A DNA stretch of 62,872 nt, taken from the IMG/VR virus record IMGVR_UViG_3300037566_000044, positions 1 through 62,872 of that record. One strand, given 5' to 3'. The position numbers and the translations under genes are program-made. How positions within the stretch are numbered: the stretch's first letter is position 1; every line of letters starts with the position of its first letter. The notes beneath the pieces are model-generated. The model saw nothing but the letters and a program-made list of their open reading frames with translations. It was not told the DNA's origin and made no database searches. Positions 886 to 25,768 of this stretch are shown in pieces. Source of the DNA: a virus. Lineage: Duplodnaviria > Caudoviricetes.

Positions 886-1269
886 ATGCCGCTTCTCTAC
901 CAACACCGGATCTATCGCACGGATCTGACCAACAACCCGAAGGTGCTCTACGTCTTTGGCGACAACTCAAAGCGCGTCGGCATGGCAGGTCAGGCGCGCG
1001 AGATGCGCGGCGAGCCCAATGCTGTCGGTATCGCCACCAAATGGAAGCCCGACATGAACCCCGCCGCGTTCTTCTCGGATCGCCTGATCGAGGAGCAAAA
1101 GCGCCTGTTCGAAGGCGACATTCGCCCGGTCATGCAGGCACTTGTCGCTGGTCGGATCGTGGTCTGGCCGTCTGACGGTATTGGCACCGGTCTGTCTGAG
1201 GTGCCGGAGCGATCGCCCAAGATGTGGGCGTTCATGGAAGAGGTTCGCAAAAGATTGGAGATGATCTGA
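886..1269 (+). CDS. Conserved phage protein, possible macro-domain-like fold
   Basis: YVFGDN...G.AGQA...RGEPNAVGI...GIGTGL motifs. Confidence 0.6.
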   Translation: MPLLYQHRIYRTDLTNNPKVLYVFGDNSKRVGMAGQAREMRGEPNAVGIATKWKPDMNPAAFFSDRLIEEQKRLFEGDIRPVMQALVAGRIVVWPSDGIGTGLSEVPERSPKMWAFMEEVRKRLEMI

Positions 1270-1757
1270 TGGACATTGTGTTCGATATCGACGGCACTCT
1301 CGCCGACGCATCCCACCGACTGCCGCATATCACAAACCCCGAGCAGCCCAAGAACTGGGATGCCTTCTTTGATGGCGCCGTGAATGACACGCCGATCCCG
1401 GAAGCCTGGGAGATCCTCTATTCGCTGCTCAGCCAGCATAACCGGATCATCTTCATCACCGGCCGTCCAGAGCGTCTTCGCACTCCGACCTATAACTGGC
1501 TGACCGACACGTATTGCGAGCACCGCGCAAATTCTGCCTGGTATTGGCAGGAATGTCCGTCGTCACGAAAACCGGTTCTTTACATGCGTGGAAATGGCGA
1601 CCGCCGACCCTCCAGCGAGGTGAAGCGCGACCTGCTGCAAAAGGCGCGCATGGATACCTTCGACCCCAAGATCGCATTCGAAGACCGCGCGGCCGACGCC
1701 AAGATGTGGCGCGACGAAGGTCTGTTCTGCTGCAACGTCAATGAAGGGCAATTCTGA
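1269..1757 (+). CDS. HAD-family phosphatase (T4 PseT 3'-phosphatase-like)
   Basis: DIDGTLA, ITGR, K and EDR HAD motifs; start reassigned to the coupled ATG at 1269. Confidence 0.85.
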   Translation: MDIVFDIDGTLADASHRLPHITNPEQPKNWDAFFDGAVNDTPIPEAWEILYSLLSQHNRIIFITGRPERLRTPTYNWLTDTYCEHRANSAWYWQECPSSRKPVLYMRGNGDRRPSSEVKRDLLQKARMDTFDPKIAFEDRAADAKMWRDEGLFCCNVNEGQF

Positions 1758-15150: not shown

Positions 15151-15627
15151 ATGACCACAATCGTCTATCGGGATGGAAAGCTGGCCGCAGATACTCGCGC
15201 TTACTCTGCTGGCCCGACACCAATCGGTATGAAGACCAAGATCGCCAGGCTTGGTGACGGCACACTGGTTGGTGTCTCGACCACTGAGCCCGGTATTGGC
15301 GAAGCTGTCATCGGTATTCTGGCTGAGCATCGGAACATGCACGAGGCGCGCGACGAACTTCTGGCGCTCGGCGACAAGCTGAAACTGCAGGCCCTGGTGA
15401 TCCGACCGAATGGCCATGTGTATTACCTCAGCGACAGCCCGTATCCGTCCGGGCCGCTCCGGGGCGCGTTCTTCGCTATCGGCTCAGGCTCGGAATATGC
15501 GATCGGCGCGCTCTCAGCCGGCGCAGGCGCTGAAGAAGCGGTTCGTATCGCGGCCGAGCACGATGCCTGGACAAATGCCGAGATCGAAATCCTCGAAATC
15601 CAAGAAACTAAGGAAAAGGCTGCATAG
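15151..15627 (+). CDS. Ntn-hydrolase, HslV/proteasome-beta-like protease
   Basis: N-terminal (M)TT...AAD.R, K and AIGSGS..A.GAL motifs. Confidence 0.75.
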   Translation: MTTIVYRDGKLAADTRAYSAGPTPIGMKTKIARLGDGTLVGVSTTEPGIGEAVIGILAEHRNMHEARDELLALGDKLKLQALVIRPNGHVYYLSDSPYPSGPLRGAFFAIGSGSEYAIGALSAGAGAEEAVRIAAEHDAWTNAEIEILEIQETKEKAA

Positions 15628-16170: not shown

Positions 16171-16422
16171 CTATTTCTTTGCTTCCTGTTCACGTTTCCA
16201 GGCGGCAAAGCATTCGAACAGAAATTCCTTCATGCTGCCGTAGCCGTGGATGATCGAGGTGGTCTTGAACTCCGTATGCCAGTCCTTTGGCATGTTGAAG
16301 GTCATCGGAACCTCTTTCTTTTCCTTCATATTGTTGGCCGGCTGCACCGCCTTGGTGTCCGGCAGGAAGCTCTTCTGCTTTGGGGGTGGCACAGCGGCAC
16401 GGGTCTTCTTTGCTTGGGTCAT
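16171..16422 (-). CDS. Small partition adaptor (ribbon-helix-helix, ParG-like)
   Basis: Coupled downstream of parA; flexible N-terminus then MTFNMP..WH..FK...SMKEFL RHH pattern. Confidence 0.75.
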   Translation of the reverse strand: MTQAKKTRAAVPPPKQKSFLPDTKAVQPANNMKEKKEVPMTFNMPKDWHTEFKTTSIIHGYGSMKEFLFECFAAWKREQEAKK

Positions 16423-17066
16423 GCTGCGCGCTCCTGCACTTGGTTGACGAACTCTACGATCTCCGCGGCCAGAAGATCCGCGCGCTCAGCCAGCTTACCG
16501 ACGTGATCTGCGACCTCTGAGATCGCCTGACCGTGGTTCTGGGCGCGCTGATAGCTGTTCTTGGCCACAATGTCCTGATCGGCCACTGCGAAGCCGTCCA
16601 GGTATTCACGCGCCTCCCGGAGCGCAACCTGGCTGTCGTCGGTCTTGTTGAGCACGAAGAGTATCCGACCGGCGTCAACGCCTTTTGACGCGAGCTCCTT
16701 TGCAAAGGCAAGCTGCGGCTCCAGGTCATCGAGCGCCAGGCCGGTGGGGAGTATAACCAGATCCGAAACCTTGGCGATGTCCAGGCTGGACTGGTCAGAG
16801 TCCGGGCGGCCATCCGCGACCACCAGGTTGTAATCTTCGCGGCGCAGGCGGGTAGGGGAGATGAACGCCTCTGCGTCGATCTTCGGCTCTATGCCCTTTT
16901 CAGCGCGACTTCTGGCCCATTTCTGAGATGTGAGCTGGGTTGTGTTGAAATCGCATATTTTCACCGTCCAGCCAGCGGAGGCGTAGGTTCGCGCAACCAG
17001 TCGAGCGACCGTGCTCTTACCAACGCCGCCCTTTTGGCTCAGGCATGCGATAACGAGATCTGCCAT
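16419..17066 (-). CDS. parA: ParA partition ATPase (type Ib)
   Basis: KGGVGKST deviant Walker A; short, no N-terminal HTH. Confidence 0.92.
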   Translation of the reverse strand: MADLVIACLSQKGGVGKSTVARLVARTYASAGWTVKICDFNTTQLTSQKWARSRAEKGIEPKIDAEAFISPTRLRREDYNLVVADGRPDSDQSSLDIAKVSDLVILPTGLALDDLEPQLAFAKELASKGVDAGRILFVLNKTDDSQVALREAREYLDGFAVADQDIVAKNSYQRAQNHGQAISEVADHVGKLAERADLLAAEIVEFVNQVQERAA

Positions 17067-17135: not shown

Positions 17136-17525
17136 TCAGAGCGGTTTGAACTTTGGACTGTCGAAAAGTGTCTCATATTGGTCGAGGGTAGGGCAGAGCA
17201 CATTCCAACTGAACCGAATTCGGTCAGAGGGAATAGACTCCATTCGGATCGTCTCGGACTCGGCATAATCCGGAATCCGATGAATCTTGCGCGCCTCACG
17301 GATGGTCATTTCCGCCCGACCGGTCAGCTTCTCGATACGGTCCAGCGCGACCTCGCACAAGCGCCGGGATGTAGGCAGCCAGAGCATGCTGCTCATACTG
17401 GCCACATCGGGGCCGTGTTTCAGGGTGCTCGCGGTTTCCTCAATGAACGCGACCTCGGCGGCTTCAGGATTTGCACCCTGAAGCTCACCAACCAGGCGGT
17501 CTTCGAAATAGACCTGGATCGTCAT
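17136..17525 (-). CDS. Hypothetical protein
   Basis: Coupled to the upstream kinase gene. Confidence 0.65.
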   Translation of the reverse strand: MTIQVYFEDRLVGELQGANPEAAEVAFIEETASTLKHGPDVASMSSMLWLPTSRRLCEVALDRIEKLTGRAEMTIREARKIHRIPDYAESETIRMESIPSDRIRFSWNVLCPTLDQYETLFDSPKFKPL

Positions 17526-18070
17526 TGCTCGATTACGTCCGAGATGCGCTCCAGCAGGCGGAGGAGGGCGTCGTCTTCGTGCAGACCTTCGGCCAGGCCG
17601 TCATTCAGGACGGTGTGATGCACGGCAGCTTTGGAATAGGTGTCGAATTCGTATTTGGAGGGGCCGGCTTCGGGATTGTCGATCTCAATCACGGTGGCGC
17701 CCAGATCGGCCCAGTAATGGCCTTGCTCGCGGCGGCAGGAGGCGAGCACGTATTTGGTGCCGGGCTTCATCTGGTTGTAGGCCATCAGCGGGATGATGTC
17801 GCCGCCGAACCTCTCTTCCAGCGCATTGCCCAGCTCTCCGAGGATCTCGCGCGCTTCAACCTCGCGGCCCAGCAGGTTGACGACTTCGGATTTGCCGGTT
17901 TGGGTGAACACCTGGTCTTCTGTCAGGTTTAACCATTTGACGGCGAATTCGCGCATGGGCAGGCCGTCATCCACTTGCTCATATCCAAAGGCTTCATGCA
18001 GCAGCTCGGCCGCGGTGGTTTTGCCTGAGTTGGGATTTCCGCAGAAGACGACGATATCGGGAAGGTTCAT
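17522..18070 (-). CDS. dNMP kinase-like P-loop protein
   Basis: GNPNSGKTT Walker A; RE.L..LG motif. Confidence 0.7.
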   Translation of the reverse strand: MNLPDIVVFCGNPNSGKTTAAELLHEAFGYEQVDDGLPMREFAVKWLNLTEDQVFTQTGKSEVVNLLGREVEAREILGELGNALEERFGGDIIPLMAYNQMKPGTKYVLASCRREQGHYWADLGATVIEIDNPEAGPSKYEFDTYSKAAVHHTVLNDGLAEGLHEDDALLRLLERISDVIEQ

Positions 18071-18188: not shown

Positions 18189-19766
18189 TCAGGCGGCTTT
18201 TGCTTCGGAGAAGAGCGACCAATCGAAATCCTGGCCATCAGGCAGGATACCTTCGGCAAAGCCGGGCGTGCGCTGAACGATGCGCTTGCGCTGACCCTGG
18301 TGCTCCCGGAGGTAGGTGTTCAGGTTGCAGCTGTAATCGGCGATGAACGCGATGTTCGGGCCTTTCTTCTTGGCACGCAGGCCGCGGCCGATGCGCTGGC
18401 GCAGGGCAACCTCTGCCTTGCCACCGCCACAGAGCCCGACCAGGCCCACTGCAGGCACGTCAACACCGACATCGAGGATGGTGGTGCCGATAATGCCGTC
18501 CAGCTCGCCGGAGACGAGTTTCTGGATCTGGGCCTTGCGGTTCTTCATGTCATCCTCGCCGCGGAGGAACTCAAAGCGCAGCCCGTTGGTCTTCAGCACC
18601 TTCCGGAGCAGCTCGCCGTGGTTCTTCCTGGCCACCAGCAGCAGGGTAGGGAGCTTATACGTCGCGGCCATGCGACAATCCTTGACGATCTCGGCGTGCA
18701 TATTCGGGTTTTCCGTGAACCCGAACTTGAGGGCGCGCTCGTAGGGCGATGATTTGCGCAGCTTTTCATGCGGCTCGACATCGGCAAACTTGAAATAGGG
18801 CTTGGCCAGGATGCCGCGGGAGATCAGCAGATCCTCGGACACGTCGATCAGCACCGGGCCGAAGGCAGCCATCAGGCGCATGTTGTCGGCTGCAGAGGAG
18901 CGCATGAACGGTGTCGCGGTCAGAGCAACCCGGATCGTCGCATTCTTGCAGTGGCGCAGGATCTCGTAATAGGAGGTGCCGCCAACCTCGTGGGCCTCTT
19001 CCCCGATCACAACCTCGACCATCGACAGGAACTTGATGATGGCATTGCGCTTGCGCACCTTCTTGTCGAAGCGCTCCTGAGCGATCTTGGCGATCTCCTC
19101 GTAGGGCATGTTCTCGTCTTTGTCCTTGGCGGTATGGATCGACTTCACCACGGCCCGGTGCTCGACATCGAGGCTGGGCTCTTCCAGCGCCTGGACCAGG
19201 GTCTGCACCATGCCAAGGTTGATACCGCGCACCACCTTCATTTGACTGTCACCGATCACGCCGGAGTTGAATCCGATGTCATCCAGCTGGTCTTTCATCT
19301 GGTAAAGCAGAATTCCGCGCGTCGTCAGGAACAGGGTCATGCGCCGATAGCGCGCCATGATCAGTTTAGCGATCTTCGACTTACCGCCGCCGGTAGCGAC
19401 ACGAATGATGCCAGCCCCATGCTTTTCCACCTGGCGCAGCGCTTTGATCTGGAAATCATAGCGAGGATCGTCATTTCCGAACTCATCGACGATCGGGTTC
19501 TCCGGGCCGAGCGGTTCCGCATGCGGTTTCTGGATGATGTGAACGGTGTGTTCGAGCTTGGTCAGCTCCGCCTGCACAACATTGAGAAAGCCCGCCGGGA
19601 ATGTGCCCGTTGCTGCGTTGAAAAAGGAGCTCTTGCCGGAGAAGGAACCGAAGCCGCCTGACTCCACCTCATAGGAGAGCAGGGAGGTGACGAAATTCGC
19701 TACATTGGGCGGTGGGTCGATCAGCTTTGCAGCGACGGCGTTCCTCGCAATTTTGATGTTGGCCAA
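18189..19766 (-). CDS. Superfamily II DNA helicase
   Basis: ATGGGKS, EEAH, LTATP, GVDVP and QRIGRGLR motifs. Confidence 0.92.
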   Translation of the reverse strand: MANIKIARNAVAAKLIDPPPNVANFVTSLLSYEVESGGFGSFSGKSSFFNAATGTFPAGFLNVVQAELTKLEHTVHIIQKPHAEPLGPENPIVDEFGNDDPRYDFQIKALRQVEKHGAGIIRVATGGGKSKIAKLIMARYRRMTLFLTTRGILLYQMKDQLDDIGFNSGVIGDSQMKVVRGINLGMVQTLVQALEEPSLDVEHRAVVKSIHTAKDKDENMPYEEIAKIAQERFDKKVRKRNAIIKFLSMVEVVIGEEAHEVGGTSYYEILRHCKNATIRVALTATPFMRSSAADNMRLMAAFGPVLIDVSEDLLISRGILAKPYFKFADVEPHEKLRKSSPYERALKFGFTENPNMHAEIVKDCRMAATYKLPTLLLVARKNHGELLRKVLKTNGLRFEFLRGEDDMKNRKAQIQKLVSGELDGIIGTTILDVGVDVPAVGLVGLCGGGKAEVALRQRIGRGLRAKKKGPNIAFIADYSCNLNTYLREHQGQRKRIVQRTPGFAEGILPDGQDFDWSLFSEAKAA

Positions 19767-19850
19767 ATCTAAGGTTCCTTTTTGGTTGCAATGGGAGCTT
19801 TCGTTCGTCTATATGATAAGTAATTGCTTACTTAAACGGAATATCTGTTG

Positions 19851-20600
19851 ATGCCCGAAGTTCAATATCTCACCGTGTCGGTGAGCGAGCTGCGCAAGAA
19901 CCCCTGGAACTCGAACCAGGTGAGCGCAGAAAACGAGGCCAAGATCCGCGAGTCGATCAAGCGGAATGGCATCTTCAAGCCGATCATTGTCCGGGAAGTT
20001 GAAGGGCAGGGCGGTTACGAGATCATTGGCGGTGAACACCGCTGGGAACAGGCCGCCGAACTGGGTCATACCGAAGTGCCCATCGCCAATCTCGGAACGA
20101 TCGATGACCGGCGCGCAAAAGAGATCGGTGTCATCGACAATGCCCGCTACGGGATCGACGACACGCTCAGCCTGGGCGAAATCCTGAAGGATATCGGCGC
20201 TGACGATCTGCAAGATTACCTCCCTTATGGTGACACCGATCTGCAAGCGATCTTCTCTGCTTCTGATATAGCGCTGGATGATCTGGATATTGATGAATCC
20301 TTCGAAAAACCCTCTGAAAATGAAGAGGAAAACGAAGAACCCATCGAAAAGCCCGCCAAAACGCACACCGTGATGCGCTACAAGTGCTCTCTGGGCGATG
20401 CCGAGCGTCTGACAGCGCTGATTGCGCGCACCCAGAAAGAGCAGGGCCTGACGACATCAGACGACCTGACGAACGCCGGGGATGCTCTGGTCTTCTTGCT
20501 GAGCGCGCACCTGGCGCCGGCCGCGTCGAATTCCGATCCGGAATCACTGGAAAACATCAATGCCGAGCTCGATGCCATCGATGCCGGAGCTGAGGAGTAA
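19851..20600 (+). CDS. ParB/sulfiredoxin N-terminal domain protein 1
   Basis: NPWN...SI...G..KPIIVR...IIGGEHRW motif; acidic tail. Confidence 0.85.
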   Translation: MPEVQYLTVSVSELRKNPWNSNQVSAENEAKIRESIKRNGIFKPIIVREVEGQGGYEIIGGEHRWEQAAELGHTEVPIANLGTIDDRRAKEIGVIDNARYGIDDTLSLGEILKDIGADDLQDYLPYGDTDLQAIFSASDIALDDLDIDESFEKPSENEEENEEPIEKPAKTHTVMRYKCSLGDAERLTALIARTQKEQGLTTSDDLTNAGDALVFLLSAHLAPAASNSDPESLENINAELDAIDAGAEE

Positions 20601-20604
20601 ACCC

Positions 20605-21294
20605 TTGTCAAATACTGAAGCCCCGTCACTGGCCATTGAGATCTGGGAAACCGAGAAACTGGTTCCTTACGAGCTCAACGCCAAGAAACACCCCCAGGAA
20701 CAGGTCGAGAAGCTCGCCAAGCTGATCCAGAAGTCCGGCTGGACCCAGCCGATCGTGGTCTGGACCAATGGTGAGATCATCGCCGGTCACGGCCGCCGGC
20801 TGGCCGCGCTGCATCTGGGCCTGAAGAAGGTTCCGGTCGTTGTGCGCTCGGATCTCAGCAAGGCCGAGGCAGATGCGCTGCGTCTGGCGGATAACCGGGT
20901 CACCTCGACCGAGTATGACCAGGGCATGATCCAGGACGAGCTGCGCCGGCTGTCCGACGAGCTGGCAGGGGCCAATATCGAGATTGGCGATCTGGGCTTT
21001 GACGCCAAGGAGCTCGACTTCTCGCTCTCAAACCTGGGCGAGATCGATGACAGCTTCTTCACCGAAGATGTCGGCGAGGCGGTGGAAGAGCAGCGCAAGG
21101 AAAACGAAGCCTCGATCGAGGAGACCGATCAGACGGCCGCCCCGGTCGGTGATGCACTGGGCTTCAAGCGCGTGAGCGTGATGCAGTCGCGCGCGATCCG
21201 CTCCTACATGGCCAAAATCGAAGCCGAGACCGGCGAGACCGGGCCGGATGCGTTGCTGGACTTCTTCAAGTCGAAGCTGGGAGATGCCGCGTGA
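20605..21294 (+). CDS. ParB/sulfiredoxin N-terminal domain protein 2
   Basis: PY..NAK.H...GWTQPI...IIAGHGR..AA...RLADNR; TTG start after GAGGAG. Confidence 0.85.
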   Translation: MSNTEAPSLAIEIWETEKLVPYELNAKKHPQEQVEKLAKLIQKSGWTQPIVVWTNGEIIAGHGRRLAALHLGLKKVPVVVRSDLSKAEADALRLADNRVTSTEYDQGMIQDELRRLSDELAGANIEIGDLGFDAKELDFSLSNLGEIDDSFFTEDVGEAVEEQRKENEASIEETDQTAAPVGDALGFKRVSVMQSRAIRSYMAKIEAETGETGPDALLDFFKSKLGDAA

Positions 21295-21698
21295 CCGATA
21301 ATGTCGTGCGTCTGGGCACCGGCCAGTCCCTCGCCGAGGAAAACGCCGAGTATGAACGTGTCCTGGCGGCGCATCAGGAACATCTGGATGAGGCCGCCGA
21401 GGCGCATCACAAGAACCTGCTGACGCTGCTGGACAACACGCGCGCCCTGGTGGAGGCCGGAAAGCTCGACGGGCTCTGTATCGCCGGGCGCAACCCGGAG
21501 AACGGCACCTTCATGTCCGTGATCACCCTGAACACCTCTGACACGCGCGTTGATACCTATCACGCCTATGCCGGTGTTCTGGGCTCGATGCAGCAAGACG
21601 TGAGCGACCTGGCCTGTTCCGGGCCGTTCATGAACTCCGACGGCTCGTATTTCGCCATCGGCAATCCCGAAATGGATATTCTGGGAGAGGAAGAATGA
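21291..21698 (+). CDS. Hypothetical protein
   Basis: Coupled ORF within the module. Confidence 0.7.
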   Translation: MTDNVVRLGTGQSLAEENAEYERVLAAHQEHLDEAAEAHHKNLLTLLDNTRALVEAGKLDGLCIAGRNPENGTFMSVITLNTSDTRVDTYHAYAGVLGSMQQDVSDLACSGPFMNSDGSYFAIGNPEMDILGEEE

Positions 21699-22339
21699 CC
21701 GATTACACCATCTCGCGCGCCTTCACGTCCTCTGTTGAGCGCACGCCGCGTGTTCTGGAGATCGCAGAGGGCTTCGGTCTGGGTCTGACCGACAAGGAAT
21801 TCGTGATCTACGACAACCTGAATATCGCAATCGAGCCTTCAGATGTCGTTTATATCACCGGACAGTCCGGATCGGGCAAATCGCTCTTGCTGCGCGATCT
21901 GGTTTCCCGTATGCGCGCCGACGGCTTGAAGGTTGCGGATCTGAACGAGATCGAACTGGAAGACCGGCCTGTTATTGAATTGGTCGGTGAAACCACCACT
22001 CACGCAACGGAGTTGCTGGCGAAAGCCGGCATCTCCGACGCCTGGATCTACATCCGAAAACCCTCTGAACTCTCGGACGGCCAGCGCTACCGCCTGAAAC
22101 TGGCGAAAGTGATGGAATCTGACGCCGATGTCTGGGTGGCGGATGAGTTTGGCGCCGTTCTGGACCGGGAGACAGCCAAGGTTGTGGCCTTCAACATGCA
22201 GAAGGTTGCCCGGCGTGAAGGTAAGACCCTGATGGTTGCCACCACCCACACCGACCTGCGCGAGGAGCTCGGGCCGAACCTGATGATCATCAAGCGGTTC
22301 CAGGAGCGCGTGGATGTCGAGGTGGATCATGCAGCTTAA
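21695..22339 (+). CDS. Stand-alone ABC-type ATPase
   Basis: GQSGSGKS, LSDGQ signature, WVADEF, TTH; no membrane partner nearby. Confidence 0.88.
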   Translation: MTDYTISRAFTSSVERTPRVLEIAEGFGLGLTDKEFVIYDNLNIAIEPSDVVYITGQSGSGKSLLLRDLVSRMRADGLKVADLNEIELEDRPVIELVGETTTHATELLAKAGISDAWIYIRKPSELSDGQRYRLKLAKVMESDADVWVADEFGAVLDRETAKVVAFNMQKVARREGKTLMVATTHTDLREELGPNLMIIKRFQERVDVEVDHAA

Positions 22340-22553
22340 AGTCGAGATCCACCGCAACGAGACCAGCCAGCCGATCGTCTACCGCGAGGCTGACAATGCC
22401 TACACCAAGGGCGAGATGTATTGCGTTCTGATGGGCGGGGAAGTGCATAAATACCCGCTGTCATCGATCTTTCGCGTGATCGAAACAAAAGAGCCCAGCA
22501 GAAGCTCTGCCGCGATAGAGCAGGCGCTCAGAGCAAGCGCAGGGAGCGCATAA
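22329..22553 (+). CDS. Small hypothetical protein
   Basis: ORF between the ATPase and the GNAT. Confidence 0.55.
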   Translation: MQLKVEIHRNETSQPIVYREADNAYTKGEMYCVLMGGEVHKYPLSSIFRVIETKEPSRSSAAIEQALRASAGSA

Positions 22554-22555
22554 AC

Positions 22556-23431
22556 GTGACTTCTGACACCGAGACACTGATCGAACGCTTTGACGCTCCC
22601 TGCGCGCGTTTTTCGCTTGCGGATGAGATGTTCGTGGAGCGCGGCACCAAGGATGACTGGGATCTGCTGCACAACCTCCATTACAAGGCAGAAAAGCTGC
22701 CGATCGGGCCGCGGTTCTGGCGGCTTGATCTGCGTGGCAACACCATTGGCGTTCTGGTCACCGGGACGCCCAAGGGCATGCTGCGCGAACGGCATATGGT
22801 GTTTCCAAATCTCAAGCCCGGCTCCGGCGAGACCCGACTGACCAACACCAACCGCTATCACTACATCAATGCCAATTTCCGGGTGATCTCGCGTTTCGTG
22901 ATCGACACGATGTATCGCGGCATCGGCGCTGGCTACAAGATGATGAACCTGGTCTCGCGCATGGAGTGTAACACCTTCATGGAGATCCAGTCTTCGATGT
23001 CCAAGTTCAATGCTTTCGGCCAGAAAGCAGGGTTCAAATTCGTCAAGCCGATGAATGCGAACAACTACGACAAGGTGATGAAATTCTTCCGCATGAATTT
23101 CTCTGCCTCGCCGCAGGATTTCGAAGCGATCATCCAGGAGATCGAAAGCAAGCCGGAGGCTGAGCGCGCCAAGCTGGCGGAGCTGTGCAAGGATTTCTAC
23201 TTCCGCAACTCTGCGATGGAGAACACCTCCAACGGTGGGGCTGCGATGGACCGCCGCCGCGAGGCCATGACAACCCGGGAGGTCGTCAAAGGTATCCAGC
23301 AGATCGGGCTTAGCTCGCCGATGTATGGCATTTGGAAATGTCCTGATCCGAAAGGCTCCGTGCCGGACAAGCTGCCGCTGACTGCCTTCGATTGTCAGAA
23401 ACCGAATGAAAGGCTGAAATGGCATGGCTAG
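22556..23431 (+). CDS. GNAT-fold acyltransferase (Mom-like)
   Basis: LHY motif; ISRFVIDTMYRGIGAG acyl-CoA binding motif. Confidence 0.75.
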   Translation: MTSDTETLIERFDAPCARFSLADEMFVERGTKDDWDLLHNLHYKAEKLPIGPRFWRLDLRGNTIGVLVTGTPKGMLRERHMVFPNLKPGSGETRLTNTNRYHYINANFRVISRFVIDTMYRGIGAGYKMMNLVSRMECNTFMEIQSSMSKFNAFGQKAGFKFVKPMNANNYDKVMKFFRMNFSASPQDFEAIIQEIESKPEAERAKLAELCKDFYFRNSAMENTSNGGAAMDRRREAMTTREVVKGIQQIGLSSPMYGIWKCPDPKGSVPDKLPLTAFDCQKPNERLKWHG

Positions 23432-23693
23432 ACCGGTGCGTTTGACCCAGAAGCAAAAGAACATCATGGGCCTGATCTTGCAGAAAGCAGGGCAGGGCAC
23501 CTTCCTGACCGTGAAAGAACTGCATGAAGCGGTGAGCCACGGTGACGGGTGCAGCTACGGTGCGATCCGGAAGAGCCTCGATGTGCTTGAGAATGCCAGC
23601 ATGATCGTGCGAGAGCGCCGATCCGGTGAGAACACGAAAGAAGTGAAACCGACCCAACAGGGATATGACTGGTTCAGACCACTCCGGGATTGA
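23424..23693 (+). CDS. Winged-helix DNA-binding protein
   Basis: LT.KQ..I..LI...LTV.EL...S.GAIR.SL..LE...I pattern. Confidence 0.75.
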   Translation: MARPVRLTQKQKNIMGLILQKAGQGTFLTVKELHEAVSHGDGCSYGAIRKSLDVLENASMIVRERRSGENTKEVKPTQQGYDWFRPLRD

Positions 23694-23700
23694 ATGATTT

Positions 23701-23776
23701 CCGGAACCGTTTCTCTACATATATTCTATACTATAAGTATTTACTTACTTACTATATAGTAGAGAGACGGTTCCGG
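23701..23776. repeat. 18-bp inverted repeat enclosing a 40-bp AT-rich spacer, upstream of terS
   Basis: CCGGAACCGTTTCTCTAC / GTAGAGAGACGGTTCCGG (17/18 complementary). Confidence 0.85.
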
Positions 23777-23795
23777 GAAATCCTGACGACAAGGT

Positions 23796-24443
23796 ATGGA
23801 AATGAGTGAAGAAACGAAACCTTCCGGAACGGAAACAAGCTCCGGTGATCGCATGACTGATGCGGATTTCGCATCCGCACGCGAACGCTATGAGCTGGGC
23901 ACAGCCACGCTTGTCGAGCTGGCCGAGGAATACAAGGTTTCGCGCCAGGCCCTGTCGAAGCGGTTCAAGAATAACGGCGTCAAGAAGGGCTCCCGGGCGC
24001 ACGAGGTCAAGGCGGCGACAGGGGAGGGCGTCAAGAAGGCTGCAGAGGCGGCTGCAGCGGCTCAGGAGCGCTTCCAGGACAAACGCGCGGAGTGGATTGA
24101 GGAAACCCGGCTTCAGGGCTTTCAGGCGCTTAAACAGGCGCGTTTGATCGGACAGAAAGCCGTCGTCGATGAGATGAAGGCTGGCGGCAGCATCGAGCGG
24201 ATCGATGGATCGCTGAAAGCGCTCGGCCGCTACAACAAACTCCTGATCGACAACCTCGACGCAACGCTCCGGTTGCTGAACTCCGATGAGCACATCGATG
24301 AGGAAGATCTGCCGAACCTGATCGTCGAGGATCTGACCGACGAGGAAATTCTCCAGCACCACAAGAACACCGGGGCGCTTCCTGAAGACGCCACCGTGGA
24401 GGAGATGCTGGCTGACGAGATCGAAATCGACGGGGTGTCCTAA
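23796..24443 (+). CDS. Terminase small subunit (putative)
   Basis: N-terminal HTH; TAATG-coupled to terL. Confidence 0.75.
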   Translation: MEMSEETKPSGTETSSGDRMTDADFASARERYELGTATLVELAEEYKVSRQALSKRFKNNGVKKGSRAHEVKAATGEGVKKAAEAAAAAQERFQDKRAEWIEETRLQGFQALKQARLIGQKAVVDEMKAGGSIERIDGSLKALGRYNKLLIDNLDATLRLLNSDEHIDEEDLPNLIVEDLTDEEILQHHKNTGALPEDATVEEMLADEIEIDGVS

Positions 24444-25768
24444 TGGCGGTCTCCGTCGCAGAAGCCAAGCCGAAGCCGTTTGAGAACCCGTTTCCGAAGC
24501 CGAAGAAACGGCAGGCGCTCAAACTGCACCGGTTCCAGAAGATCGTTCACCGGGATCAGACACGTTTCCGGGTGATCGTTGCCGGCCGCCGCTGGGGTAA
24601 AACTCAGCTGGCGCGGATCTCACTGGTCATGGCCGCGGCGAAGAAGCGAAACCAGCTCGTCTGGTATGTGGCGCCGACCTACCAGATGGCGCGCGACATT
24701 CTGTGGGACGAACTGCGTGCCTCGATCCCGCGTGCCTGGATCAAGAAGACAAACGAAACCCGGATGGAGATCAAGCTGGTCAACGGCTCGAAGATCGCCC
24801 TGAAGGGTGCCGACAAGCCGGACACGCTCCGCGGTGTTGGTCTGAACTTCGTGGTCATCGACGAGGCGCAGGACATCAAAGAAGAAACCTGGGAGATGGT
24901 TCTGCAGCCGACCCTGGCGACCACGCATGGTAACGCCATCTTCATCGGCACGCCCAAATCCTACAACTGGCTCTATGACCGCTACATTCTGGGTCAGCGC
25001 TCCCGGATCGTGAAGGATGCGCGCGGCCGGGATGTGGCCAACGAGTGGATGAGCTGGCAGTTCCCGACCATCACCTCGCCGTTCATTCCGCGGCAGGAGA
25101 TCGAGGCCCGCCGGCGCGATATGGACCCGAAATCCTTCCGCCAGGAATTCGAGGCCAGCTTCGAGACCATGTCCGGCCGGGTCTACTACCAGTTCGACCG
25201 CAACATCCATGTCGGCGACTATGCCTTCAATCCGCACCTGCCGATCTATATCGGCATGGACTTCAACATCGACCCGATGTCGGCCATCATCTGCCAGGAG
25301 CAGGCCAATGGCGAGATCTGGATCGTGGATGAATGCGTGCTCTACGGATCGAACGCGCAGGAGACAGCCGACGAGCTGGCCCGACGCTATTACAAATACA
25401 TGGATCAGATTTCGATCTATCCTGACCCTGCAGGCAGTAACAGAAACCACGACCGCGGTGAAAGCTCGCTCGACATCTTGCGCGAGGCAGGGTTCGACAA
25501 TCTCTATTACAAGGCCAAGCACCCGCTGGTTATGGATCGTGTGAACGCGGTGAACCGGGTGATGCGCGCAGCCGATGATTCCATCATGCTGCGTGTCAAT
25601 CAGAACTGCCGGAAATTCATCGATAGCGCAGAGCAGACGATCTACAAGCCCGGGACGCGCGAGGTTGATAAGAGCCAAGGCACAGAGCACGCAATGGATG
25701 CGTTCGGCTATTACATCGACTATCGGCACCCGATGCGGAAGGTGGATATTCTCGGGGTTTCCATTTGA
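24443..25768 (+). CDS. terL: Terminase large subunit
   Basis: AGRRWGKT, VIDE, GTP; GMDFN...D..H.MDA nuclease motifs. Confidence 0.95.
   Translation: MAVSVAEAKPKPFENPFPKPKKRQALKLHRFQKIVHRDQTRFRVIVAGRRWGKTQLARISLVMAAAKKRNQLVWYVAPTYQMARDILWDELRASIPRAWIKKTNETRMEIKLVNGSKIALKGADKPDTLRGVGLNFVVIDEAQDIKEETWEMVLQPTLATTHGNAIFIGTPKSYNWLYDRYILGQRSRIVKDARGRDVANEWMSWQFPTITSPFIPRQEIEARRRDMDPKSFRQEFEASFETMSGRVYYQFDRNIHVGDYAFNPHLPIYIGMDFNIDPMSAIICQEQANGEIWIVDECVLYGSNAQETADELARRYYKYMDQISIYPDPAGSNRNHDRGESSLDILREAGFDNLYYKAKHPLVMDRVNAVNRVMRAADDSIMLRVNQNCRKFIDSAEQTIYKPGTREVDKSQGTEHAMDAFGYYIDYRHPMRKVDILGVSI

Follow-up and report, generated by a model that had tools for sequence, protein, structure and literature searches.

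Mom of phage Mu, encoded by the phage and made during lytic growth, is a GNAT-fold enzyme that modifies adenine in DNA. At its locus there is neither an ATPase partner nor a ParB, and no linkage to terminase, unlike the module described here. TmcA and NAT10 share the logic proposed for that module, an NTPase unit coupled to a GNAT whose substrate is a nucleic-acid base, but they are cellular, acetylate RNA cytidine, use a helicase-like rather than an ABC ATPase and carry RNA-binding domains. A phage system for acyl modification of DNA nucleobases, built from a GNAT and an ABC ATPase, is described as predicted and unproven in the available portion of Iyer et al. (Viruses 2021, PMC7824862), which credits the prediction to Iyer, Zhang, Burroughs and Aravind (NAR 2013) and takes phage pT24 as exemplar. 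In Tenacibaculum phage pT24 the two domains are likewise phage-encoded and split into adjacent genes: gp038 matches our ABC ATPase (tblastn 1.3e-18), and gp037 matches the GNAT profile weakly, in the motif A region only (2.4e-4). The module here adds two ParBs, an optional 135-aa gene, a variable slot and a winged helix-turn-helix (wHTH) gene. ParBs come into the picture from another direction. The accessible part of a report on the 5mYOX system (PNAS 2026, PMC13229309) describes experiments in which a DNA T-dioxygenase is activated by a phage ParB with no obvious DNA-binding domain, with terminases in 19.2% of ParB-dioxygenase clusters. As in our locus, that ParB has nucleotide-binding and C-terminal domains and sits beside a DNA-modifying enzyme, often near terminase; as described there, the enzyme is an Fe/2OG dioxygenase rather than a GNAT, with one ParB rather than two and no ABC ATPase.

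The window, by which we mean the whole 62,872-nt stretch of DNA analysed, is about half of a tailed phage or phage-plasmid of the RHEph10/SSU5 type. The phage that carries the block here is of roughly 116 kb, whereas pT24 is a jumbo phage. Seven plus-strand ORFs occupy 19848-23693 (Table 1), followed by terS, terL and portal. Neighbours overlap by 4-41 nt or are spaced by 2 nt, and so the preliminary description was right to call them closely coupled; its observation as a whole was confirmed. Its gene order stays colinear in all 80 related IMG/VR loci, and again in Salmonella phage SSU5 and Rhizobium phage RHph_X66, which supports the proposal of a single packaging-linked unit. We read these genes as a conserved lytic-cycle module adjoining the terminase. 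Its best-conserved gene is the ABC ATPase (median 74% identity, 76 of 80 loci; terL, 65%), and the two enzyme genes, ABC and GNAT, both rank with the best kept, above portal, across the 80 related loci. The helicase upstream, on the opposite strand, recurs in 59 of the 80 and in SSU5. The 135-aa ORF is not present in the SSU5 block and has no match in Pfam, PHROGs, NCBIfam or PADLOC; every Atlas match was below 0.9. The 79-aa ORF was detected in 2 of 80 loci, in a slot where ABC-to-GNAT spacing ranges from 45 to 2160 nt. RHph_X66 has two hypothetical genes there and a DUF2829 gene, presumably of the Tad2-like anti-Thoeris family. The last gene was rightly read as a wHTH: its model resembles MepR, MarR, PerR, Fur and ZitR (Foldseek TMq 0.70-0.75).

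Table 1. Features of the terminase-side module and its flanks (positions in the window)
Feature	Coordinates	Strand	Evidence
ResIII/Helicase_C helicase, divergent, syntenic with module	18189..19766	-	PF04851 7e-13, PF00271 3.6e-9, phrog_16
Palindromic operator-like site AAGTAA-N4-TTACTT	19818..19833		15 nt 5' of ParB1 start
ParB1: ParB_N nucleotide-binding domain, acidic linker, conserved C-terminal domain	19848..20600	+	PF02195 5.4e-15, phrog_723 5e-62
ParB2: ParB_N of the phage-methyltransferase-fusion kind, without methyltransferase	20560..21294	+	PF02195 8.8e-9
135-aa acidic ORF, family unassigned, optional member	21291..21698	+	27/80 related loci
Soluble ABC-type ATPase, N-terminal half of split ABC::GNAT enzyme	21695..22339	+	PF00005 2.2e-12, phrog_293
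79-aa ORF, variable slot between ABC and GNAT	22314..22553	+	phrog_10299 1.9e-23
Divergent GNAT-fold acyltransferase, C-terminal half of split enzyme	22556..23431	+	phrog_886 1.3e-112; AF2 pLDDT 89.1
89-aa winged helix-turn-helix protein	23424..23693	+	AF2 pLDDT 87; topology H-H-H-b-b-H; 43/80 related loci
Long inverted repeat/hairpin between module and terS	23698..23779		21-nt arms, 90% complementary
Small-terminase-like DNA-binding protein (terS)	23796..24443	+	phrog_867 4.2e-37; weak N-terminal HTH matches
Large terminase subunit (terL)	24443..25768	+	PF04466 3.6e-9, PF03237 1.4e-7, phrog_2 2.3e-56

ABC and GNAT together make up a single enzyme, each gene encoding one half. A phmmer search of 1.84 billion representatives returned 210 matches at E<=1e-3, many of them 450-500 aa long and matching at residues ~200-400; in all 10 long matches scanned, PF00005 lies N-terminal to the GNAT-like part. 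One viral contig encodes a 501-aa ABC::GNAT fusion, a search with a profile built from the fusions reached at least 474 viral contigs, and fusions also occur in archaeal MAGs. The fused proteins of archaea are homologous over their full length and keep the same invariant residues, and in some archaeal relatives a TFIIB repeat (P0166) or Gins51_C (P0192) is joined on. The two separate chains are predicted to form a complex, ABC residues 190-203 lying against GNAT residues 2-21, with an ipSAE of 0.62 (runs 0.61-0.66; best of three controls 0.00), contacts agreeing to at least 89% and partner pLDDT of at least 78. Scores at this mark occur in 58 of 80 solved complexes as against 2 of 110 mismatched pairs. 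A solved structure of such a complex is not known to us; the pair are halves of a naturally fused protein. Fused homologues and predicted complex together support the idea that ATPase and GNAT act jointly. The same domain pair appears in records of homologous genes from Escherichia phage Cyrano and Klebsiella phage ST13-OXA48phi12.3, named 'MK0520, ABC-type ATPase fused to a predicted acyltransferase domain'; here it is two genes with one small gene between. We take the MK0520-named family to be COG2401, for which a literature search found no paper.

Both halves have intact catalytic motifs. All 9 aligned ABC homologues keep Walker A, the LSDGQ signature, the Walker B DE and the H-loop unchanged. 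The 291-aa partner reaches no better than E=0.012 against Pfam Acetyltransf_10, yet its AF2 model finds 24 GNAT structures in the PDB at E<=1e-3 (Foldseek), and R121-G-I-G124 is GNAT motif A, invariant in 26 sequences, so the assignment of a GNAT with RGIGAG was borne out. D34, H42, Y43, R79, R113, R121, G124, E143 and N152 are invariant. The preliminary description had also seen a Mom-like HY motif. Likeness to Mom exists at the level of fold only: a Mom homologue is the top viral match (BFVD, E 8.5e-6, TMq 0.41, TMt 0.57; PDB 8bv8, TMq 0.36), whereas sequence similarity to Mu Mom was not detected (hhalign probability 0.5% over 12 columns), and our protein has a 120-residue C-terminal helical/beta extension that Mom lacks. 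The ATPase-coupled nucleic-acid acetyltransferases NAT10 and TmcA are also among the PDB fold matches (9j3c, rank 18; 2zpa, rank 25). Small-molecule and protein N-acetyltransferases head those matches (agmatine/polyamine NAT at 4.7e-5, HP0935, Ard1), and we count the rank of Mom (19) and of TmcA (25) against DNA modification. The basic character of the protein (pI 9.28) counts in its favour.

Neither ParB matches HTH_ParB models at E<=0.1, as expected from the earlier view of two ParB-domain proteins without an obvious HTH, and PF02195 is found in both. ParB1 has a pI of 4.28 (4.97 for its nucleotide-binding domain) and a box, GGEHRW, whose H and R are invariant across 16 sequences; the degenerate arginine box (GEHRW) and strong acidity weigh against DNA modification. 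ParB2 keeps an invariant GHGRR box and matches phrog_930 (2.8e-74), phrog_498 'DNA methyltransferase' (2.5e-38) and PADLOC MTase_II (8e-25). All 10 longer homologues of ParB2 are ParB-N6_N4_Mtase fusions, with PF01555 in all 10 and PF02195 in 9. The N-terminal half of such fusions (PF02195+PF01555; phrog_498) is 34-46% identical to ParB2, in which a short acidic linker and small C-terminal domain replace the methyltransferase.

The enzyme lies beside terL in several differing gene orders. A Phycisphaerales MAG contig has ABC-GNAT-terL, and locus L086 has terL-ABC::GNAT. Among 80 archaeal-type loci terL is directly adjacent in 47 and within 3.3 kb in 6 more; in 27 the terL HMM found no match near the ABC::GNAT gene. 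A ParB-like gene, ABC::GNAT and terminase follow one another in Gordonia phage BiggityBass (genes 1, 2 and 4) and Leptospira phage LE4 (gp14, gp15 and gp19), and Jace has ParB-like and ABC::GNAT genes in the same arrangement (gp85, gp86). The ParB pair is near ABC::GNAT in 1 of the 80 archaeal-type loci and absent from 79, so the enzyme does not require ParB.

The module also shares its control sites with structural genes. It was thought to stand under one operator, at 19817. The palindrome is there, at 19818-19833, but it belongs to a window-wide set: AAGTA-N(6-10)-TACTT occurs 8 times against 0.08 expected, with copies preceding ParB1, terS, portal and four other plus-strand genes of the structural region. 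By our own reading, several of the 8 appear to lie between -35-like and -10-like hexamers. The copy upstream of ParB1 is present in 14 of 59 relatives. Nor does the operon run straight into terS as had been proposed, for a 102-nt gap intervenes and holds a hairpin (MFE -42.7 kcal/mol, z -8.8) whose tip carries another copy of the operator (23735-23750). In 54 of 71 relatives a similar structure (z<-4) lies ahead of terS; among coding controls the figures are 2 of 32 and 6 of 40. The gene beyond is probably terS, by its position; its stop overlaps the start of terL.

What, then, does the module do? According to many database annotations both enzyme genes encode ABC-transporter subunits, with records for each named, for example, 'putative ABC transporter ATP-binding protein', and the ATPase does match PF00005. 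We give this next to no chance. The 291-aa protein has the fold of a GNAT and not of an ATPase, its relatives are ABC::GNAT fusions, and permease families were not found in Pfam or PHROGs. None of the seven products holds a 19-aa window with a Kyte-Doolittle mean of 1.6 or more; membrane-spanning segments are therefore absent and the operon has no permease, just as a soluble ABC ATPase without one had been claimed. Fold model, fold matches and hydropathy scan together contradict the transporter reading. It is very improbable, too, that ParB1 and ParB2 serve plasmid partition or KorB-like transcriptional silencing, their place beside ABC and GNAT being functionally meaningless. Their ParB_N domains do have Spo0J, Noc and ParB as best PDB sequence matches, and the available portion of Pfeifer et al. 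2021 (PMC7969092) describes the two ParB copies of related phage-plasmids as partition genes. Against this, the ParBs have no detectable HTH_ParB domain, and 2.8 kb away on the other strand a ParA-like gene (16419-17066, PF01656 2.1e-7) followed by an 83-aa gene is, on its sequence, compatible with a type Ib partition pair. ParB also accompanies ABC::GNAT in BiggityBass, where the two are genes 1-2 at one end of the genome, and in LE3/LE4, without sign of a plasmid state; the title of the Leptospira phage paper terms LE3/LE4 lytic. This company, and the methyltransferase fusions that make up every longer ParB2 relative, support the view that the pair is not of partition type.

It strikes us as improbable that the module serves counter-defence or host takeover through a small molecule and lies near terminase only since that region gathers accessory genes. 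Candidate substrates would be a polyamine, a signalling nucleotide or an antibiotic-like compound. Agmatine, polyamine and arylalkylamine N-acetyltransferases are indeed top PDB fold matches, the ABC-GNAT slot is variable and holds DUF2829 in RHph_X66, and an aspartate decarboxylase gene adjoins ABC::GNAT in Jace. Yet ABC and GNAT are conserved better than portal, which sets them apart from accessory genes; the terL linkage outlasts changes of gene order in very distant viruses; and PADLOC shows only ParB/MTase and generic ABC matches, with no other defence-system membership. Rather less easily set aside, though still unlikely, is an ATP-gated protein acetyltransferase that leaves DNA unmodified and acts on a packaging or virion protein (terminase, portal and capsid are the targets named) or on a host DNA-bound protein, with the ParBs tethering it to DNA-bound targets. 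Protein N-acetyltransferases (HP0935, Ard1, Naa60) are among the best fold matches, the tight linkage is to terL and not to nucleotide-metabolism genes, and the archaeal TFIIB-repeat and Gins51_C fusions hint at DNA-bound protein partners. To our knowledge, however, acetylation in phage packaging has no precedent. The ParB context is that of DNA-modifying enzymes, and DNA is the target favoured by the contextual analysis in the available text of PMC7824862.

We lean, at a little short of an even chance, towards a conserved terminase-side module whose two-polypeptide ABC-GNAT enzyme acylates phage DNA, with help from ParB, against restriction. The split enzyme, the terL linkage and the kinship of ParB2 with methyltransferases make DNA modification a reasonable reading. 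It is not a new one, having already been published as a computational prediction; a limited literature search turned up no account of DNA modification in phages like SSU5 or RHEph10. The original idea of an ATP-dependent acyl modification is thus supported in part, by the conserved packaging-linked module, the ATPase-GNAT pairing and the non-partition ParBs, while DNA as target, the acyl donor, the part played by ParB and what the modification is for are what we infer. The C-terminal strand of the ABC ATPase would dock on the N terminus of the basic GNAT-fold acyltransferase, reconstituting the single-chain ABC::GNAT that many viruses encode beside terL. Binding and hydrolysis of ATP by an ABC dimer would gate the GNAT active site on its substrate, and the GNAT would then take an acyl group off an activated carrier, such as acyl-CoA, and place it on a base of the phage DNA after replication, either just ahead of packaging or while packaging proceeds. 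The two ParBs without a DNA-binding domain may, in bacterial lineages, load the enzyme on DNA or activate it there. The acyl mark would guard the incoming DNA from restriction.

The window, catalogued in IMG/VR as a virus, has an estimated completeness of 54%. At the nucleotide level, its nearest neighbours are the Rhizobium phages B1VFA, V1VFA-S and RHph_X66 (about 70% identity over 79% of a 6-kb query); RHEph10, Pseudomonas phage nickie and the SSU5-type phage-plasmids are more remote kin. Our subject is a block of seven + strand genes bounded on one side by a helicase gene and on the other by terS, terL and the portal gene. In order, the block encodes two ParB-like proteins (ParB1 and ParB2), a 135-aa protein, an ABC ATPase, a 79-aa protein, a GNAT-like protein and an 89-aa protein. 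Adjacent genes overlap by 4 to 41 nt or are parted by 2-nt gaps, and gene layout, family matches and folds all bear out the seven-gene operon of the preliminary description. By its AF2 model and a fold search, the 89-aa protein has a winged-helix fold. For the 135-aa protein, Pfam, PHROGs, NCBIfam and PADLOC offer no family, and its Atlas matches all fall below 0.9; the 79-aa protein matches its PHROG but nothing in Pfam, NCBIfam or PADLOC. Sequencing-run contigs that match the window come without exception from pond metagenomes, with no RNA run among them. Four such runs compared with the window gave short, low-depth pieces in which no starts or ends were seen, and one contig (2264 nt) spans the hairpin that precedes terS. 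A metagenome joint from 21237 to 22816 we distrust, its short side being only 21 nt long.

Coordinates of features in the window, with family matches where there are any
Feature	Position	Strand	Remarks
Polynucleotide-kinase-like gene	1224-1757	+	phrog_415; left arm of window
HslV-family peptidase gene	15151-15627	+	phrog_1040; left arm of window
ParA-like gene	16419-17066	-	2.8 kb off; own 83-aa partner
dNMP-kinase-like gene	17522-18070	-	phrog_139, 9e-16; adjoins helicase gene
Helicase gene	18189-19766	-	divergent from the block, on its upstream side
ParB1 gene	19848-20600	+	
Palindrome sites	18088, 19818, 23735, 25779, 29479, 32414, 38947, 53044		pattern search of window
Inverted repeat (82 nt)	23698-23779		between winged-helix gene and terS; second operator copy at tip

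At the heart of the block are two proteins. PF00005 marks the 214-aa protein as an ABC-type ATPase, and its Walker A, LSDGQ, Walker B DE and H-loop are all invariant among aligned homologues. The 291-aa protein matches the Pfam GNAT models marginally (E 0.012). Its AF2 model (pLDDT 89.1, pTM 0.76) has a GNAT core and a C-terminal extension of about 120 residues, and the R-G-x-G of GNAT motif A is invariant in its alignment. Searched against the PDB, the model gave 24 matches at E<=1e-3, every one a GNAT, with small-molecule and protein N-acetyltransferases at the top; BFVD gave 18 at the same threshold. Database records mostly name both genes 'ABC transporter', and the nucleotide-binding motifs are indeed common to the ATPase and to transporters. 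The membrane permease partner of a transporter was not found. As the preliminary description had it, the operon lacks a permease: none of the seven products has a membrane segment (a 19-aa window with a Kyte-Doolittle mean of at least 1.6) and none belongs to a permease family in Pfam or PHROGs. That the two genes encode transporter subunits is thus a reading to which we give next to no chance.

The ABC and GNAT proteins look like one enzyme in two polypeptides. A full HMMER search with the GNAT-like protein (1.84 billion representatives) returned 210 matches at E<=1e-3, many of them proteins of 450-500 aa that match through their C-terminal half. PF00005 lies N-terminal to the GNAT-like part in all ten long homologues scanned, and the invariant residues of both halves are preserved in the fused proteins. 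(A word-index search for longer GNAT relatives had given none among 2006 candidates, a false blank, the full HMMER search having found the fusions.) Clusters of fused proteins derive mostly from Nitrososphaerota and Thermoproteota MAGs, and one from a Planctomycetota MAG. Two archaeal relatives of the fusion carry additional domains: P0166 (665 aa) has a C-terminal TFIIB repeat, a transcription-initiation module, and P0192 (554 aa) an N-terminal Gins51_C domain, a replication-initiation module. For the separate proteins of the window, the predicted complex has an ipSAE of 0.62 (0.61-0.66 over three runs; 0.00 for the best of three controls), with contact agreement of at least 89% and partner pLDDT of at least 78. 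In the predicted interface, residues 190-203 of the ATPase, its C-terminal strand, pair with residues 2-21 at the N-terminus of the GNAT, which is what a split chain would lead one to expect; the motif-A region of the GNAT (117-123) also contacts the ATPase. The model supports, without proving, that the two proteins bind each other.

The block is strongly conserved. The GNAT gene is present in 31 phage records, including SSU5-type phage-plasmids of Salmonella, Klebsiella and E. coli as well as Rhizobium, Pseudomonas and Stenotrophomonas phages, and it has 562 relatives (E<=1e-3) in a 90%-clustered protein collection, many of them encoded on contigs 100-120 kb long. SSU5 itself, whose record opens with the terminase genes, has a helicase gene on the minus strand, ParB, ParB, ABC, a small gene, an 'ABC' gene that is really the GNAT and another small gene; the same order is found in RHph_X66. 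We used the GNAT gene to retrieve 80 IMG/VR loci, and all 80 show the detected genes in colinear order on a single strand. ABC was detected in 76, the four misses all having less than 800 nt of upstream sequence, and ParB1 in 67, the GNAT gene lying at most 2.7 kb from a contig end in all 13 misses. terL was detected in 75; the five misses end within 3.4 kb past the GNAT start, although in one of them (L072) about 1.1 kb of remaining sequence gave no terL match. Median identities across these loci (ABC 74%, GNAT 66%, terL 65%, portal 58%, ParBs 54%) indicate that the ABC and GNAT genes are constrained at least as much as the packaging genes. Less constant are the 135-aa gene (27/80) and the winged-helix gene (43/80 at E<=1e-5). 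ABC-to-GNAT spacing ranges from 45 to 2160 nt, so the slot between them is variable; in RHph_X66, it holds a DUF2829 gene (L082:14512-15315) and two hypothetical genes.

Linkage to terL extends to distant carriers. A Phycisphaerales MAG contig runs from ABC to GNAT to terL, and an IMG/VR contig, L086, has a GcrA-like gene, terL and a fused 501-aa ABC::GNAT gene, with a ParB_N+HTH_ParB gene 3.6 kb downstream. Scanning genome contigs with a profile of the divergent stand-alone GNAT group gave a single locus. The archaeal-type fusion profile matches at least 474 viral contigs in IMG/VR, and in the best 80 of these we sought terL with a custom HMM. It lies directly upstream of the fused gene (<300 nt) in 44 of the 80, directly downstream in 3 and 0.3-3.3 kb away in 6, and has no HMM match in 27; Pfam confirmed all three of the upstream terL calls that were checked. 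In 13 of those 27 loci, the upstream neighbour is a protein of 530-1013 aa, with a YQBQ-like domain in the one member tested. The fused proteins of these contigs (e.g., L094:6466-9416 and L147:6387-9410) are 37-48% identical to P0164, the fused protein of a cluster drawn from Nitrososphaerota MAGs, and GC content is about 45% in the six loci measured. Many archaeal-type contigs stop a few bases past the fused gene, as if at a genome end. Downstream of the fused gene, three archaeal-type contigs each encode a different DNA-directed enzyme: an N6 methylase/Eco57I-like protein (L094:10175-12481), a methyltransferase-HerA fusion (L146:9426-11993) and an AlwI-type restriction endonuclease (L147:10939-12744).

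Cultured phages carry relatives too, 99 records matching a fused-protein query. In Gordonia phage BiggityBass, a ParB-like gene 1 is followed by gene 2, ABC-like and encoding about 410 aa, by gene 3, annotated as a methyltransferase, and by gene 4, the terminase; the annotation of the gene after the ABC/GNAT (L168:1823-2473) is tRNA methyltransferase. Phage Jace has a ParB-like gp85, an ATP-binding gp86 and an aspartate decarboxylase, gp87 (L169:6628-7053); that the decarboxylase hints at a beta-alanine-derived donor is pure speculation. In Leptospira phage LE4, gp14 is ParB-like, gp15 a 'GNAT' and gp19 terL. The GNAT profile matches the C-terminal parts of all three (LE4 1e-9, BiggityBass 1.4e-5, Jace 1.6e-5).

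ParB1 and ParB2 both contain PF02195. A canonical type Ia partition ParB has an HTH_ParB domain and an adjacent ParA; sequence search found no HTH_ParB (PF17762) in either protein at E<=0.1, whereas the ParB of L086 matches that model at 8.4e-6, and no cognate ParA was found beside them. The sole ParA-like gene of the window, on the opposite strand, can account for partition together with the small gene downstream of it. That the two ParBs serve partition or regulation only, as their family might suggest, is therefore very improbable. ParB2 points elsewhere: its N-terminal 160-180 residues match phrog_498 'DNA methyltransferase' (2.5e-38) and PADLOC MTase_II (8e-25), and its longer homologues are ParB-N6_N4_Mtase fusions in 10 of 10 cases (PF01555 in 10, PF02195 in 9). 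Its arginine box, GHGRR, is invariant and its nucleotide-binding domain basic. ParB1 is of another kind. Its box, GGEHRW against GxxRxxA, is degenerate, one arginine having become His and the last Glu, and the protein is unusually acidic for the ParB family (pI 4.28, 53 D+E in 250 residues, nucleotide-binding domain pI 4.97). Direct DNA binding by ParB1 is unlikely, and it is conceivable that it acts as a DNA mimic or adaptor. The ParB-like genes of BiggityBass, Jace and LE4 make ParB a recurrent partner in bacterial phages, unlike the archaeal-type contigs, where it lies beside the fused gene in 1 of the best 80 of at least 474. The closest experimental precedent for a possible role of ParB1 and ParB2 is a DNA thymine dioxygenase shown to require a phage ParB that has a nucleotide-binding and a C-terminal domain and lacks a DNA-binding domain (PNAS 2026, PMC13229309); the paper also reports terminases in 19.2% of such clusters.

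The preliminary description placed the block under one operator. The palindrome AAGTA-N(6-10)-TACTT is there, at 19818-19833, but it is one of eight copies in the window, against 0.08 expected. All eight stand 13-48 nt upstream of a start codon, and the genes behind them are the dNMP-kinase-like gene (on the minus strand), ParB1, terS, portal and four more + strand genes of the structural region. This places the module, together with morphogenesis genes, in what looks like a regulon spread over the whole window. At several sites, read by eye, the palindrome falls between -35-like and -10-like hexamers; a sigma-70 consensus promoter scan found no site in 19600-24600. Only closer relatives keep the palindrome at corresponding places (14/59, 14/71 and 15/65 loci). 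The winged-helix protein as operator-binding protein is unsupported: the related locus with its closest counterpart (L010, 64% identity) has no palindrome in its 11 kb. The inverted repeat before terS folds at -42.7 kcal/mol (z -8.8), and 54 of 71 relatives have a structure of comparable stability ahead of terS, against 2/32 and 6/40 for coding controls under the same best-window procedure. Among the related IMG/VR loci its position is conserved and its sequence is not. It lacks a T-run, and its candidate roles are those of a pac-related element, an insulator and a processing site.

The module is an instance of an already predicted system. An ABC ATPase coupled to a GNAT was proposed as a phage system for acyl modification of DNA bases (Iyer et al., Viruses 2021, PMC7824862); the passages of that paper on the system name Tenacibaculum phage pT24, cite Iyer et al., NAR 2013, and call the activity uncharacterized. 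Both elements are present here, the GNAT-superfamily domain by fold and motif A, and the coupling by fusion in relatives such as L086 and by the predicted complex. The pT24 system is likewise split, into gp038 and gp037. The window ATPase matches gp038 (tblastn, 1.3e-18), the broad GNAT profile matches gp037 weakly and in the motif A region only (E 2.4e-4), and the fused L086 protein matches pT24 at 4e-16. Given this homology of both halves, the idea of DNA modification in the preliminary description repeats a published computational prediction.

The likening of the GNAT to Mom in the preliminary description holds for the fold and fails for the sequence. The top BFVD match of the model is a Mom homologue (E 8.5e-6, TMq 0.41), and the Mom structure 8bv8_B matches at E 6.6e-4 (TMq 0.36, TMt 0.49), the shared GNAT-like fold being a feature of every GNAT; hhalign of Mu Mom against a 26-sequence GNAT profile gave a probability of 0.5% (E 0.12, 12 columns), that is, no sequence relation. 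Likeness to TmcA/NAT10 is also limited to the GNAT fold: their ATPase is helicase-type, fused N-terminal to the GNAT and accompanied by an RNA-binding domain, whereas that of the window is ABC-type. Two of three papers on Mom (PMC7261163, PMC13219725 and bioRxiv 2023.03.24.534169) describe a tRNA-dependent chemistry for it, which widens the range of possible acyl donors for GNAT-fold DNA modifiers.

In a limited literature survey we found no experimental characterization of the ABC+GNAT module. Searches on COG2401, on an ABC-type ATPase fused to an acetyltransferase domain, and on SSU5 with ParB-like and terminase found nothing; SSU5 with ABC transporter led only to plasmid-genomics papers, and a search linking large terminase, acetyltransferase and ABC ATPase in archaeal viruses gave nothing relevant. 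A paper on Thaumarchaeota mobile elements (PMC6563490) has no 'ABC' term and a sole, unrelated mention of an acetyltransferase, and one on wheat-phyllosphere phages has no relative of the module. The portions consulted of the pLM21S1/RHEph10 papers (PMC4447125, PMC5537653) and of a phage-plasmid paper (PMC7969092) leave the module genes undiscussed, save two ParB copies in a related group; by one of these three accounts, pLM21S1 is without a DNA methyltransferase gene.

What, then, does the enzyme modify? We put the chance that it is DNA a little short of even. The case is contextual, built on the kinship of ParB2 to methyltransferase modules and the ParB-dioxygenase precedent, on terminase linkage, a basic GNAT and lytic-cycle co-regulation, and on fold-level likeness to Mom and NAT10/TmcA. 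Against it stand the want of a sequence relation to Mom, the dispensability of ParB in archaeal-type viruses, and the small-molecule and protein N-acetyltransferases that are the best PDB matches. A protein target, to which the last of these would lend itself, strikes us as rather unlikely, and a small-molecule or counter-defence role as improbable. Returning to DNA, a broader reading would make ABC::GNAT a standard companion of terL in a set of tailed viruses that is very large and for the most part uncultured, and that takes in archaeal-type contigs as well as phages of Proteobacteria, Actinobacteria, Spirochaetes and Bacteroidota. There it would put an acyl group (acetyl, aminoacyl or similar) on DNA as the packaging motor receives it. 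This we regard as possible and on balance doubtful.

Our analysis goes beyond the earlier prediction in relating split and fused forms, with a model of the complex in support, in counting how often terL and ParB accompany the enzyme in distant viruses, in tying ParB2 to methyltransferases, and in describing the operator regulon and the conserved hairpin before terS. Several carriers can be grown on laboratory strains, so the question of chemistry is directly testable. If DNA is modified, phage anti-restriction would gain a new chemistry, and ABC ATPases and ParB proteins a new use; sequencing, cloning and host range of the carrier phages could be affected as well. Were the broader reading true, a widespread class of virion DNA modification would have been overlooked, including in the enterobacterial SSU5-type phage-plasmids. 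Even with a target other than DNA, an enzyme so closely tied to terL in both bacterial and archaeal-type viruses suggests that packaging includes a step not yet described.
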